IMG/VR virus record: IMGVR_UViG_2778261574_000004
Coordinates: 1 to 4,311 of that record
Reading direction: 5' to 3' (one strand)
Source: a virus
Taxonomy: Duplodnaviria; Heunggongvirae; Uroviricota; Caudoviricetes
Length of the DNA stretch: 4,311 nucleotides
Both the position numbers and the translations under genes were made by a program. Every line of letters begins with the position of its first letter. Within the stretch, counting starts at the first letter, position 1. Below are positions 1-4,311 of the stretch, piece by piece. A model generated the notes under the pieces. It made no database searches and was not told where the DNA came from. It saw only the letters and a list, made by a program, of their open reading frames with translations.

Positions 1-17
1 ACCTTGGTTTAAGAGAA
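1..17. other. Left DNA-invertase crossover site (hix/gix/cix-like), truncated by the window start; only the inner half-site GGTTTAAGAGAA (6..17), core TT (4-5) and 3 nt of the outer half are present
   Basis: Positions 1..17 ACCTTGGTTTAAGAGAA are the reverse complement of the inner half and core of the right site (4276..4292). The core dinucleotide is TT here versus AA at the right site, i.e. identical in inverted orientation as needed for inversion by a serine invertase. Confidence 0.6.
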
Positions 18-182
18 CTCGGTACCAGCGGTGAAAAGATCCCCTTGTTGAGCACGGCTAACACATGGAGTGCGCGCCAGACTTTCAACGGCGGGATCAC
101 CGGGGCACTGACAGGGAACGCCGATACCGCGACGAAATTGAAAACAGCCAGAAACATTAATGGCGTCAGGTTCGATGGTTCT
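1..182. repeat. Inverted repeat block A, left copy (pairs with 4111..4292)
   Basis: Direct comparison with the reverse complement of 4111..4292 gives 180/182 identical. The two mismatches (pos 45 T vs C, pos 107 A vs G) are both synonymous (Leu TTG/CTG, Ala GCA/GCG). Identity stops abruptly after the codons for FDGS (182). Confidence 0.95.
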
Positions 183-1565
183 ACGAACATTTCGATACCA
201 ACAATTACGTCTAGAGGACGCGTTACTGCGCTTACCGGTACAACGCAAGGTGCTGCTACTGGATTGCAGATGTATGAGGCATACAACAATGGTTATCCAA
301 CGACTTACGGGAATGTACTTCACCTGAAGGGAGCAGCATCCACTGGTGAAGGCGAGTTGCTCATTGGCTGGAGTGGCACAAATGGCGCTCATGCACCTGC
401 TTTCATTCGATCCAAAAGAGATAGCACTGCTGCGGCATGGTCCGAATGGGCGCAGATCTATACGTCAAAAGATTCAGTTCCCGGCGTCAATGCTAAAGGG
501 GATCAGGATACCTCTGGTAATGCGGCTACAGCGACTAAATTGCAGACAGCATGTACTATTAACGGTGTCTCGTTTGATGGTTCTAAAAATATTGAGCTAA
601 CGGCGGAAGATTTAAATCTTGAGCAAACCGTAGAATTAGCCGCTGGATCATTGCAGAAAAACCAGAACGGCGCAGATATTCCAAACAAAGATAAATTTAC
701 GCAAACAATAGGTGCTTGCCGCTCTTTTCATGGTGCTATTAGCACAGGTGCAGGAAACTGGACGACGGCACAATTGATTGAATGGCTGGATTCTCAAGGG
801 GCATTCAATCACCCATACTGGATGTGCAAATGTTCATGGTCATACGGCAATAATAAAATTATTACCGATACTGGCTGTGGAACTATTCATCTTGCAGGTT
901 GCGTTATTGAGGTTATGGGTAATAAAGGTGCCATGACCATCCGTGTAACAACACCAAGCACTTCCACCGGAGGTGGCACCACTAATGCGCAATTTACTTA
1001 TATAAACCATGGCGCAGATTACGCCCCAGGCTGGCGGCGCGACTACAGCACAAAAAACCAGCAACCTGCATTTGCTTTAGGGCAGACAGGAAGCACAGTT
1101 GGAAATGACAAAGCTGTTGGATGGAACTCAATTAGCGGGGTTTATAACGCAAATATTGGTGGAGCATCTACGTTAATTCTTCATTTTTATATGGGAGCTG
1201 GTAGTTGTCCGGCTGTTCAGTTCCGCGTGAATTATAAGAACGGCGGTATTTATTATCGTTCAGCGCGTGATGGTTATGGATTTGAGGCTGACTGGTCAGA
1301 GTTTTACACCACGACCCGCAAACCCTCTGCGGGAGATGTTGGTGCATACACGCAGGCAGAATGTAACTCAAGGTTTATTACAGGTATTCGCCTTGGCGGT
1401 CTGTCATCTGTTCAGACATGGAATGGTCCCGGCTGGTCTGACAGGTCAGGTTATGTCGTTACGGGTTCAGTTAACGGAAACCGTGATGAATTGATTGATA
1501 CAACTCAGGCAAGGCCAATTCAGTATTGCATTAATGGGACGTGGTATAACGCGGGGAGTATTTAA
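3..1565 (+). CDS. Tail fibre protein, variable C-terminal part A (5'-partial; frame enters from upstream of the window through the left crossover site; first in-window start candidate is TTG at 45; stop TAA 1563..1565)
   Basis: Long ORF (506 aa from TTG 45) whose frame stays open back to position 3 ([22 protein letters not shown]...). Two copies of a fibre-repeat-like motif GNAxTATKLxTAxxINGVxFDGS (nt 114..182 and 516..584), which I recall from lambdoid/P1/Mu-type side tail fibres. Gly/Asn/Thr/Ser-rich beta-type composition; C-terminal tip motif IRLGG...INGTWYN shared with the minus-strand fibre; immediately followed by a tfa gene. Confidence 0.88.
   Translation, partial: LGLRELGTSGEKIPLLSTANTWSARQTFNGGITGALTGNADTATKLKTARNINGVRFDGSTNISIPTITSRGRVTALTGTTQGAATGLQMYEAYNNGYPTTYGNVLHLKGAASTGEGELLIGWSGTNGAHAPAFIRSKRDSTAAAWSEWAQIYTSKDSVPGVNAKGDQDTSGNAATATKLQTACTINGVSFDGSKNIELTAEDLNLEQTVELAAGSLQKNQNGADIPNKDKFTQTIGACRSFHGAISTGAGNWTTAQLIEWLDSQGAFNHPYWMCKCSWSYGNNKIITDTGCGTIHLAGCVIEVMGNKGAMTIRVTTPSTSTGGGTTNAQFTYINHGADYAPGWRRDYSTKNQQPAFALGQTGSTVGNDKAVGWNSISGVYNANIGGASTLILHFYMGAGSCPAVQFRVNYKNGGIYYRSARDGYGFEADWSEFYTTTRKPSAGDVGAYTQAECNSRFITGIRLGGLSSVQTWNGPGWSDRSGYVVTGSVNGNRDELIDTTQARPIQYCINGTWYNAGSI
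438..619. repeat. Inverted repeat block B, left copy (pairs with 3677..3858)
   Basis: Reverse complement of 3677..3858 matches 438..619 with about 5 mismatches (about 97 percent), including perfect runs of 40-66 bp. Encodes WSEWAQ(I/V)[14 protein letters not shown](D/N)[16 protein letters not shown](C/R)[22 protein letters not shown] in both fibre genes. Mapping is left x to right 4296-x. Confidence 0.95.
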
Positions 1566-1567
1566 CG

Positions 1568-2101
1568 ATGATGCACTTAAAAAACATTACTGCTGGCAAC
1601 CCTAAAACAAAAGAGCAATACCAGCTAACAAAGCAATTTAACATCAAATGGCTTTATTCAGATGATGGAAAAAACTGGTATGAGGAACAAAAGAATTTCC
1701 AGCCAGACACTTTGAAAATGGTCTATGACCATAACGGCGTTATTATTTGTATTGAAAAGGATGTTTCAGCAATTAATCCAGAAGGCGCAAGCGTCGTTGA
1801 ATTACCTAATATTACAGCAAATCGCCGTGCTGACATTTCTGGTAAATGGATGTTCAAAGATGGCGTAGTGATAAAGCGAACTTATACCGAGGAAGAACAG
1901 AGGCAACAAGCTGAAAATGAAAAGCAAAGCCTATTGCAACTTGTCAGGGATAAAACCCAACTGTGGGACTCACAGCTACGGCTGGGCATCATTTCCGATG
2001 AGAATAAACAGAAATTAACCGCGTGGATGCTATATGCGCAGAAAGTAGAATCTACAGATACCTCCATCCTGCCAGTAACGTTTCCCGAACAACCAGAATG
2101 A
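1568..2101 (+). CDS. tfa: Tail fibre assembly protein (Tfa/U-type chaperone), partner of fibre A
   Basis: ATG at 1568 (second ATG at 1571) lies 2 nt after the fibre stop, with GGGGAG (1553..1558) as Shine-Dalgarno. 177 aa. C-terminus ...LTAWMLYAQKVESTDTS...PEQPE resembles the conserved Tfa C-terminal motif (recalled lambda Tfa ...LEAWKKYRVLLNRVDTS...). N-terminal ~100 aa about 70 percent identical to the minus-strand paralog. Confidence 0.85.
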   Translation: MMHLKNITAGNPKTKEQYQLTKQFNIKWLYSDDGKNWYEEQKNFQPDTLKMVYDHNGVIICIEKDVSAINPEGASVVELPNITANRRADISGKWMFKDGVVIKRTYTEEEQRQQAENEKQSLLQLVRDKTQLWDSQLRLGIISDENKQKLTAWMLYAQKVESTDTSILPVTFPEQPE

Positions 2102-2104
2102 GAA

Positions 2105-2131
2105 AAGGCCCGTTATCGGGCCTTATTTTTT
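2105..2131. terminator. Bidirectional rho-independent terminator between the convergent tfa genes
   Basis: Perfect 8-bp stem AAGGCCCG (2105..2112) / CGGGCCTT (2117..2124) with 4-nt loop TTAT and 6 GC pairs; followed on + by ATTTTTT (2125..2131) and preceded by GAAAA (giving a U-tract on the minus strand). Sits between the + tfa stop (2099..2101) and the - tfa stop (2130..2132). Confidence 0.7.
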
Positions 2132-2657
2132 ACTCAGGTTTTTGTGGCCATTCTGGCTTTGCCGTATCCACGCGGCTTACAAGAACGCTGTAGCGTTCCC
2201 ATGCTTCCAGTCGGCTGTGGTCCTCATCCGTTGCCATATTCAGCCTTACTGCACGCTCTAGTAGTTGAATGACTGATTCAGCATCAGCAAGAAGTCTAGC
2301 TTTCTGATTTTCTACCTGCTGCTGTAATTCCTCTGCCGTATAAATACGTTTAATAACTGCGCCATCCTTAAACATCCAGTTACCTGAAATGTCGGCACGT
2401 CGGTTAGCAGTAATATCCGGCACTTCAACAACACTTAATCCATCCGGTCTGATAGCTGTTACATCCTTTTCCACATAGCGGATGATGTTATCTTTGTCAT
2501 ACGCTAATTTTATCGTGTCATCCTGGAAGTTCTTTTGTTCCTCATACCAGTTTTTACCGTCTTCTGTAAAAAACCAGATGACATCAAAATGTTTCGTCAG
2601 CTGGTATTGCTCAACTGTTTTTGGATTACCCGCTGTTATATTGATCAAATGCTGCAT
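2130..2657 (-). CDS. tfa: Tail fibre assembly protein (Tfa/U-type chaperone), partner of fibre B; start taken at the ATG (revcomp of 2655..2657) 4 nt after the fibre B stop, not the upstream start at 2855 in the ORF track
   Basis: The 241-aa track ORF overlaps the fibre B 3' end by about 200 nt; the internal Met ([14 protein letters not shown]...) aligns with the start of the plus-strand tfa ([14 protein letters not shown]...). C-terminus ...[27 protein letters not shown] matches the recalled Tfa family C-terminal motif well. Confidence 0.85.
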
Positions 2658-2661
2658 AAAT

Positions 2662-4311
2662 TTAAACCTGTGCCACGTTATACCATGTTCCGTTAATATA
2701 TTTCTGTACCGGTCTATAATATACGCCACCAATGTTATCGGCAGAGTTTGAACCGGTATCCTGGACAATAATGCCGGAATAAACGCAACCTGACGGTGCC
2801 TGATGGGTCCATGTTGTGCCATTATTTGCAGGTTTGTATGATGATGCGCCACCAAGCCTGATATCCCTTACATAGCGGGAATCAAAGTTGCCATAATTAC
2901 CTGGGATAATTTGCGAACCGCAAAGCCAGTTACCGTTATTATCCATGTACGCCTGACCATCGGTGCCATTGGCTGTCCTTGAGTTATTAATCATGTAGAT
3001 GCCAAATTGCTTGTTCCCCAGTCCACCTATCATGAACTTGCGGTCAACGTGATTCTGGCGAAGCAACGCCTGAGCGCTATCTGTATTAACTATATTTTTC
3101 CCAAAGATAGCGTTGTTATCGCGCATCTGAATCCACATACCATTACTGCTGTTAATAGCAAAACGGTCTGAAAGCGTCTCTCCTGAAACATTAAGTCCGC
3201 GTCCCATAGAAACTGCGCCAGTGGCATTATTAATCCATAATGGTCTTAATCCGTTATAAGTCCCCATGTTGTCACCGGAGTTTGTCAACATGAAGTATGT
3301 ATTTGAACCATCATTACGGATAAAAAACCCGTAATTACCATAAGCAATACGGAGGCCGTTTGCTGATTTTGATATTACTTCGCCATTTATAATGGCGTTG
3401 ATAAGAACATACAAAGCATCCCATTTAAGATTCATCAGGTCTTTTGTTGTAGTGCTTTGTTTGCTTCTCCATTTGAAATATTCATTGCCGTTGTCGCCTG
3501 TTTCAAACCACATGAATGAATCAGTATCGCTGTCGGCATCATTTTTAAAACCAATCTTCGCCCAATCAGTATTTCGAATCCAGGCAAGGATTGAGTCATT
3601 TTCAAAAGTAAGCCCGCCGGACAAGATATCGCCTGAACGCTGAACGGCATTATTTGCTTTATTAATGAATTCCTGTAAATTTAAATCTTCCGCCGTTAGC
3701 TCAATATTTTTAGAACCATCAAACGAGACACCGTTAATAGTACGTGCTGTCTGCAATTTAGTCGCTGTAGCCGCATTACCAGAGGTGTCCTGATTCCCTT
3801 TAGCATTGACGCCGGGAACTGAATCTTTTGACGTATAGACCTGCGCCCATTCAGACCAGTTGGCAGAATCAGTATCCCGCCGCGAACGGATATGTACTGG
3901 CGCATGGTCACCACTCGTGCCACTCCAGCCAATGAATAACTCACCTTCGCCAGCAGCGGTGGCACCTTTAAGGTGAAGCACATTGCCATAGGGGGAAGGG
4001 TAGCCATTGTTGTATGCCTCATACAGCTGAATCCCGGATGTTCCCTGTGCATTCGCCTCCAAGGCCGTTACGCGACCGCGTGATACCAGAGTATTGATAT
4101 TAATGTCACCAGAACCATCGAACCTGACGCCATTAATGTTTCTGGCTGTTTTCAATTTCGTCGCGGTATCGGCGTTCCCTGTCAGCGCCCCGGTGATCCC
4201 GCCGTTGAAAGTCTGGCGCGCACTCCATGTGTTAGCCGTGCTCAACAGGGGGATCTTTTCACCGCTGGTACCGAGTTCTCTTAAACCAAGGTTTTTGCGA
4301 ATTGCCTCCGT
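2662..4311 (-). CDS. Tail fibre protein, alternative variable C-terminal part B (5'-partial or silent copy; frame open from the window end through the right crossover site; first in-segment start candidate is TTG at 4245..4243; stop TAA revcomp 2662..2664)
   Basis: 527 aa from TTG. The first ~46 aa are identical to fibre A, the next ~85 aa about 70 percent identical, the next ~60 aa nearly identical (block B), and the remaining ~330 aa unrelated except the C-terminal tip (IRLGG...[11 protein letters not shown]). Same two fibre-repeat motifs (revcomp coordinates 4111..4179 and 3712..3780). The frame upstream of 4245 reads ...[22 protein letters not shown] with no stop to 4311. Confidence 0.88.
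3677..3858. repeat. Inverted repeat block B, right copy
   Basis: See left copy. The 3-nt offset difference from block A reflects one extra codon in the diverged patch on the plus-strand gene (255 vs 252 nt). Confidence 0.95.
4111..4292. repeat. Inverted repeat block A, right copy
   Basis: Reverse complement matches 1..182 with 2 mismatches; mapping is left x to right 4293-x. Confidence 0.95.
4276..4301. other. Right DNA-invertase crossover site, 26 bp: TTCTCTTAAACC-AA-GGTTTTTGCGAA (imperfect dyad around a 2-bp core)
   Basis: Seen in sequence: two 12-bp imperfectly inverted half-sites flank a central AA at 4288-4289. From memory it closely resembles the Hin/Gin/Cin/Pin site family (recalled hixL: TTCTTGAAAACC AA GGTTTTTGATAA). 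It sits exactly at the outer boundary of inverted-repeat block A. Confidence 0.75.

Follow-up and report, generated by a model that had tools for sequence, protein, structure and literature searches.

The 4,311-nt window, meaning the whole stretch of viral DNA that was analysed, is recognisable from its sequence as a Cin/cix-type invertible C segment of a P1-like phage-plasmid. A motif of 23 residues or 69 nt, GNAxTATKLxTAxxINGVxFDGS, occurs four times in the two tail-fibre genes of this segment. The explanation that we consider quite probable is that the window is an invertible P1-like C segment, in which the four motif copies are the cores of shaft repeat units, here called R, that lie within the inverted repeats. 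The arrangement as such is ordinary, well-understood mosaic tail-fibre biology, and the window is a variant member of the long-known P1-type family. The one mildly new point is that R is very abundant and yet has neither a curated family in Pfam or NCBIfam nor a solved structure. The first-pass annotation of this DNA had described the motif copies together with two inverted "blocks", but it missed the main context, namely that these blocks are parts of the inverted repeat known from the P1 C segment, one arm of which has been replaced in a patch.

The window as an invertible C segment

The P1 C segment matched positions 1–4292 of the window with 88.7% DNA identity, 96% of the window being covered, and the features annotated for P1 across the matching region are cixL, Sv prime, U prime, U, S and cixR. 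An even closer match was the Escherichia fergusonii plasmid pRHB23-C01_3 (95.9 kb, IncY), which differs from the window by one base. Two convergent sets of a fibre end and a chaperone are encoded, while the constant N-terminal part that they share lies outside the segment. Fibre A (3–1565, plus strand) is the variable C-terminal part of the tail-fibre protein S and a homologue of P1 Sv prime, as assigned from its open reading frame, the P1 annotation and a Pfam gp37_C match at amino acids 360–453. Its constant part, Sc, is located to the left of the window and is fused to it in the source record; in pRHB23-C01_3, fibre A and Sc together form a single S protein of 973 residues. Fibre A is followed by its assembly chaperone, the P1 U prime homologue (1568–2101, plus strand; Pfam Caudo_TAP, E=2e-36, and P1 annotation). 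On the minus strand, fibre B (2662–4311; Pfam Gp34_trimer, E=4e-37) is the alternative variable part, homologous to P1 Sv and resembling P2 H and Mu S, and it is silent in the present orientation of the segment. Its assembly chaperone, the P1 U homologue, occupies 2130–2657 of the same strand (Pfam Caudo_TAP, E=7e-34, and P1 annotation). Between the convergent operon halves, a hairpin scan revealed a terminator-like hairpin at 2105–2124 that reads as such on both strands.

The ends of the segment are formed by two inverted 26-bp crossover sites of the Din family. Only the inner half of the left cix site is included in the window (1–17, mapped from the P1 annotation and the source record), which starts 3 nt ahead of the TT core at positions 4–5; in the source record the site is complete and reads TTATCCAATACC TT GGTTTAAGAGAA. 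The right cix site, TTCTCTTAAACC AA GGTTTTTGCGAA, is located at 4276–4301, in agreement with the position of P1 cixR, and it was the sole full match to the Din-family site pattern inside the window. A serine recombinase gene of 193 codons, the product of which is 60% identical to Cin, is present in the source record 55 nt past the right end of the window. Unlike P1 cin, with which it shares only this level of identity, the gene has the opposite orientation and reads away from the segment. Both orientations of the segment occur in nature: the sibling plasmids H26 and H28, which are of equal length and derive from one study, carry it at identical coordinates on opposite strands. We therefore conclude that the segment inverts in nature. 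A Cin-family serine invertase would flip it at the cix sites, one per end, and inversion would thereby join the constant part of S to either of two receptor-binding ends, each with its own chaperone. Since cix precedes the divergence of the two variants by ∼0.6 kb, both would start with a shared shaft module, R-D-R, inside the inverted repeats, D being a domain of ∼94 residues (SRGRVTAL...YGNVLHLKG...) between R units.

A scan with the Din-type pattern detected no full internal crossover site in the window. One match with a single mismatch was found at 680–705, outside the motifs, and this is at chance level, as two or more matches were obtained in 18 of 200 shuffled sequences. A multiple-inversion system of the p15B Min type was considered and rejected on these grounds.

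Alignment of the two arms showed that the inverted repeat is interrupted, so that the continuous repeats of ∼0.6 kb known from this family are not present in the window. Block A (1–182) pairs with 4111–4292 and is identical at 180 of 182 nt, block B (441–617) pairs with 3679–3855 and is identical at 172 of 177 nt, and past 617 the arms are unrelated. The stretch between the blocks in arm A (183–440, plus strand), which encodes most of the knob domain D, aligned with only ∼65% identity and a length difference of 3 nt, having ∼100 differences both from arm B and from P1. Thus, the differences between the arms of the window number 2 in 1–182, 100 in 183–440 and 5 in 441–617, whereas the arms of P1 are without a difference over 1–565 and the P1 repeat ends near 617. 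The counterpart of the patch in arm B (3856–4110) has kept the P1-type allele with 5 differences from P1. Because arm B is P1-like throughout and arm A is diverged exactly in 183–440, blocks A and B are regarded as remnants of the classical 0.6-kb repeat. The D domain of one arm would thus have been swapped for a diverged allele, splitting the P1-type repeat into the two blocks. A set of 37 distinct related arms contained two main alleles of the patch stretch, combined with differing flanks. Block A ends exactly at the last codon of motif copy 1 (FDGS), and the left crossover of the D replacement would fall in the conserved DNA of this copy. The right edge of the patch is situated 73 nt upstream of motif copy 2, which itself lies inside block B, at a distance of 75 nt from the 5′ edge of the block and of 33 nt from its 3′ edge. 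The earlier placement of copy 1 at the 3′ edge of block A was therefore exact, and that of copy 2 in the centre of block B was roughly right.

The motif and the 40-residue repeat R

Translation placed the four motif copies where they had been annotated before. In fibre A, copy A1 is located at 114–182 (plus strand) and copy A2 at 516–584, the latter within a complete canonical R unit of 40 residues at 477–596 (plus strand). In fibre B, copy B1 is found at 4111–4179 (minus strand) and copy B2 at 3712–3780, within the complete canonical 40-residue R unit at 3700–3819 (minus strand). A repeat search independently recovered the same motif pairs, two direct and two inverted. As the previous annotation had noted, the copies are near-identical to their counterparts in the other gene: A1 and B1 are the same at 69 of 69 nt and A2 and B2 at 68 of 69 nt. 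Within one gene, the copies share 51 of 69 nt (74%) and 18–19 of 23 amino acids. The value of ∼60% DNA identity given previously was hence too low, but the contrast with the identity between the genes is real.

The motif is identifiable in these translations as the conserved core of a tail-fibre repeat of 40 residues. The consensus of this R unit, derived from 27 units, is xPGVNxxGNQxTxGNAxTATKLxTARxINGVxFDGSxNIx. A2 and B2 match the whole unit. In A1 and B1 the match starts at GNA and is preceded by a different sequence, which makes them R cores with an atypical N-terminal flank. A tandem pair of R units is absent from the window, where the units are spaced by 134 residues because D is inserted between them. 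In relatives, however, arrays with a period of 40 residues are common, and they bear out the proposal that the motif represents a genuine tail-fibre repeat. Homologues of the 216-residue module contain one to four motif copies, successive copies being exactly 40 residues apart, and related fibres in general have from one to at least nine R copies, often in tandem at exactly this distance. The arrangements encountered among 85 loci included RDR (46 arms, among them those of P1 and the window), RD, RRDRR, RRDRRRR, RRRRDR and RRRDRRRRRR. Single-R and RR forms without D occur as well (P0078, P0087, P0076), which marks the knob D as optional. The Pfam domains that follow the module also vary among the homologues, and include Gp34_trimer, Collar with Phage_fiber, Peptidase_S74, Gly_rich_2 and gp37_C. 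When an R profile was compared with 1.84 billion representative proteins, 17,429 matches were obtained at E≤1e-3, of which 5,506 reached E≤1e-10. A single protein had as many as 20 matched stretches, and the commonest spacing was 40 residues. The eight top matches for which the clusters were looked up were mostly metagenomic, one being from a Tara Oceans sample. As a side observation, a scan of genome contigs for related loci yielded 5 additional loci only.

Two simpler accounts of the motif can be judged against these data. One is that the similarity within a gene is a chance match. The best 23-residue self-match in fibre A comprised 18 identities, as opposed to a maximum of 11 in shuffled sequences (n=200), and with a motif family counting 17,429 clusters this account is practically untenable. 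The other is that the motif belongs to the Pfam family Phage_fiber_2 (PF03406), the family that had been suggested for it in the first-pass annotation. This family, too, describes a phage tail-fibre repeat of ∼40 residues, and the very same S protein contains it. However, its match covers residues 215–254 of full-length S, which is a different sequence (QKGLVQLSSATNS...) that belongs to Sc and lies outside the window. Neither the motif peptides nor the N-terminal parts of 216–224 residues gave a Phage_fiber_2 match at E≤10, and the full variable parts gave none at E≤1; the motif thus stays below the PF03406 gathering score of 22 bits. With its own sequence and location, PF03406 is distinct from R, and we see virtually no room for equating the two. 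No repeat family was found by Pfam in the R arrays, nor by Pfam or NCBIfam in the motif peptides, the N-terminal parts or the whole fibres, and PHROGs returned whole-fibre families only. A literature search for the motif found nothing, and the papers that we examined on the structure and the host range of P1 make no mention of it.

In an AlphaFold monomer model, D (residues ∼66–155) was predicted to be all beta with pLDDT values of 80–87, whereas R reached a pLDDT of ∼50 and displayed short strands around INGV and FDG. Foldseek searches against the PDB gave weak matches to fibre proteins (AS12 gp42, E=1.3e-3; T4 gp34, ∼0.1; R-pyocin fibres), none of which was usable for the motif, and a sequence search of the PDB with the 216-residue module found nothing. 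The best matches of the R profile in the PDB were weak too, and both were to a longer variant with an insertion of 7 residues: the C-terminal spike of the phage L protein Dec (E=0.0065; Dec residues 98–130, NAETADKLSTARTI...SFDGSANVT) and a stretch of the PhiM1 tail fibre gp47 (E=0.011). In Dec monomers the spike is unfolded; it takes shape in the trimer only, which it holds together (PMC11398494). It is a beta-structured element, the exact fold of which is unsettled and the atomic structure of which has not been determined experimentally (PDB 6E3C; PMC6449081, PMC11398494). The profile match and the trimer-only beta folding of Dec constitute the likeness; on the other hand, the match is weak and carries the 7-residue insertion, and Dec is a capsid protein with a single copy, not a fibre. 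From the low pLDDT of R in the monomer and the weak likeness to Dec, we infer that R would build a thin, beta-structured part of the trimeric shaft, the folding of which would depend on the trimer.

Conservation and recombination at the motif copies

The two kinds of similarity among the motif copies differ in nature. When the extended repeats around A1 and A2 (nt 114–191 versus 516–593, 26 codons) were compared, 10 codons were identical, 10 were synonymous and 6 changed the residue. Thus, 10 of the 20 conserved codons differ between the copies within the gene, and the longest DNA run that A1 and A2 have in common is 10 nt. These synonymous differences and the shortness of the shared run indicate that conservation within a gene is at the protein level, and the within-gene copies would be alike only as protein, with the fold constraining them. 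The R units within one gene of the relatives present the same picture with a mean DNA identity of 59–72%, apart from a few recent duplications or conversions with up to 97% identity or exact runs of at most 81 nt. Between the genes, by contrast, the identity includes synonymous sites, so what is shared there is DNA, namely the inverted repeat, and the counterparts are almost identical because both belong to it. The inverted repeat is a duplication, the two arms of which probably stay alike because they recombine with each other.

Recombination around the motifs was approached by pairwise two-state segmentation of the 37 arms. Out of 1282 identity transitions, counts that do not represent independent events, 279 fell at 180–194, directly past copy 1. 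Further clusters of transitions were seen at 270–299, 375–389 and 435–464, and there was a broad spread over 465–630. Directly after copy 1 is also where the sharpest identity step in the window is found, and this step was the most recurrent one among the 37 arms. The Hudson-Kaplan lower bound amounted to 41 recombination intervals distributed over the entire arm. An R unit is overlapped by 14 of these, while R units make up ∼28% of the arm. Other breakpoints were located inside the knob D, at the WSEWAQ codons and at the junction that corresponds to the gix site of Mu. Local protein alignments to homologues frequently stopped where R1 starts, within FDGS, at residue 155 where D ends, or just past R2. 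Breakpoints are only moderately concentrated at R, and the role of the motifs in recombination is modest. A clustering of breakpoints at the motifs, for which the first-pass annotation proposed to look, is seen in the top recurrent step right after copy 1, but not in the spread of the intervals along the arm. Likewise, its view that the motifs mark boundaries of fibre modules is right in so far as they flank exchangeable modules and as copy number, D and the C-terminal domains vary, but other boundaries exist too. The suggestion that the copies are themselves weak substrates for rearrangement was not upheld: the non-allelic copies share a run of at most 10 nt, and a query of 72,556 plasmid records with the copy-1/copy-2 junction returned, among the 12 top-ranked matches listed, only two-piece matches spanning 721 nt and no recombinant with the corresponding deletion.

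Two further explanations place the weight either entirely on the protein or entirely on the DNA. It could be argued that purifying selection on the protein alone, without shared descent or homogenisation of the DNA, accounts for the near-identity between the genes, the more so as thousands of fibres show strong conservation of the motif at the amino-acid level. Yet the counts of 69/69 and 68/69 nt, embedded in blocks with 180/182 and 172/177 identical positions, include synonymous sites, and the copies within a gene, which are under the same constraint, differ at 18 of 69 nt. We therefore judge this explanation to be highly improbable. Slightly less improbable, though still very unlikely in our opinion, is the idea that the motifs are DNA recombination signals, be it extra invertase sites as in p15B Min or selected hot spots. 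Their occurrence in direct and inverted pairs within an invertible segment, and the exact coincidence of one identity step with the end of copy 1, would fit such a function. However, beyond the cix site at 4276–4301, the pattern scan left only the chance-level match outside the motifs. Moreover, half of the conserved codons differ synonymously and the longest shared run is 10 nt, from which it follows that the motif DNA itself is not conserved. The protein motif furthermore occurs in thousands of fibres, mostly metagenomic, and close relatives showed no recombinant junction among the 12 two-piece matches listed.

In the reading that we favour, with the motif copies as cores of R shaft units in the inverted repeats, R units would be conserved islands between modules that allow diverged fibre genes to recombine in frame. 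They are neither the sole islands of this kind nor dedicated recombination sites, and the same role is held by the end of D and by the LxL(Q/R)E linker, which hosts cix and, in Mu, gix. A bolder version of this idea would make R an unrecognised, very widespread and trimer-dependent "zipper" that serves as a universal in-frame adapter, the synonymous scrambling of its copies being selected because it blocks deletion while permitting exchange between genomes. We regard this as an unlikely proposition, albeit not a far-fetched one.

Use of the repeat and comparison with known systems

The value of the finding lies mainly in annotation and engineering, and it leaves the understanding of the inversion switch unchanged. 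R and D are invisible to Pfam and NCBIfam, and much of the fibre sequence that is now listed as "hypothetical" would receive a label from a curated model. Natural in-frame junctions are provided by the R-unit ends, by the WSEWAQ...TSKD end of D and by the LxL(Q/R)E linker hosting cix or gix. Such junctions could guide the construction of P1, P2 or Mu chimeras in which the fibres confer new host ranges.

The G segment of Mu (Gin/gix) and those of D108 and SfMu are related to the window in that they encode homologous variable fibre ends and chaperones. The central 3 kb of the window, from ∼620/650 to 3635, is 81.5–87.3% identical to Mu-type G segments, the value for Mu itself being 85.6%. Homology to Mu DNA begins at 619–649 and stops at 3633–3635, which are the inner ends of the inverted repeat, and the match to Mu for this reason has no counterpart of the R-D-R module. 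The Mu crossover site is placed at the point where the inverted repeat of the P1 type comes to its end. Here, at the inner end of this repeat, where fibre B encodes DLNLQE, the window contains the 10-nt sequence TTCCTGTAAA (3669–3678, plus strand), which matches a Mu gix half-site in its outer 10 nt. A site-pattern scan found no second half-site, and the sequence is regarded as a relic of a gix half-site of which only these 10 nt have survived.

A mosaic evolution of tail fibres via exchanged short shared segments is reportedly the subject of work by Sandmeier and colleagues from 1992, by Sandmeier from 1994 and by Haggard-Ljungquist and colleagues from 1992. The window resembles that situation in that conserved short segments and sequences like invertase sites bound exchangeable modules. 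Its closest parallel, however, is the C segment of phage P1, with which it has in common the gene order, the cix sites, the convergent pairs of fibre and chaperone genes and the R-D-R module in the inverted repeats. The two differ in that the arms of P1 are unbroken, whereas one arm of the window carries a diverged patch of 258 nt.

Switch states and fibre tips

The segment was found at the same coordinates in two plasmid records matching the window, H26 (NZ_CP057567.1) and H28 (NZ_CP057563.1), but in opposite orientations. Both plasmids are 95,926 bp in size and originate from one sheep-farm survey, and as a pair they represent both switch states caught in nature. The C-terminal tips of the alternative fibres A and B were unrelated apart from a shared ending, INGTWYN, which is encoded within inverted repeat I6 (1512-1554 and 2673-2715). 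By inference, this ending may serve as a contact for the related chaperones U and U prime.

Components of the R-D-R module

Domain D, the knob encoded at 183-470 and 3826-4110, comprises ∼94 residues and is predicted to be all beta (pLDDT 80-87). Like the shaft repeat unit R, it is without a Pfam family. Since domain D was also found alone ahead of lambda-Stf-like Collar domains, for example in the homologue P0098, it constitutes a separate mobile module.

The window differed from its closest plasmid record solely at position 152. In motif copy 1, the respective codon (150-152) falls on the conserved TAR position and reads AGA (Arg) in the window and ATA (Ile) in the plasmid; Ile at this position of R was furthermore present in several homologues of the R-D-R module in the unit list. 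While the R copies of the window are old and codon-scrambled, those in a few long fibre genes (loci L062, L066, L067 and L068) were 88-97% identical as DNA, or had exact runs of 38-81 nt in common, which indicates recent duplication or conversion of units.

Neighbouring invertase and a relic of a gix half-site

An invertase gene is located just right of the window (L002, the source-record locus, 8366-8947, + strand). The encoded protein is only 60% identical to Cin of P1 and, whereas P1 cin reads towards the segment, this gene reads away from it. Farther out, a recombinase fragment of 74 residues (L002 9080-9304, − strand) may be what is left of a cin gene that has been replaced.

Where the inverted repeat ends on its inner side, fibre B has kept TTCCTGTAAA (3669-3678; compare 617-626 on the + strand), a sequence that corresponds to the outer portion of a half-site of Mu gix. 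The peptide encoded at this relic, DLNLQE, corresponds to YLGLRE at cix and to NLGLQE at Mu gix. Judged from the relic and these peptides, the R-D-R module of the P1 type looks like an insertion separating the crossover site from the variable part.
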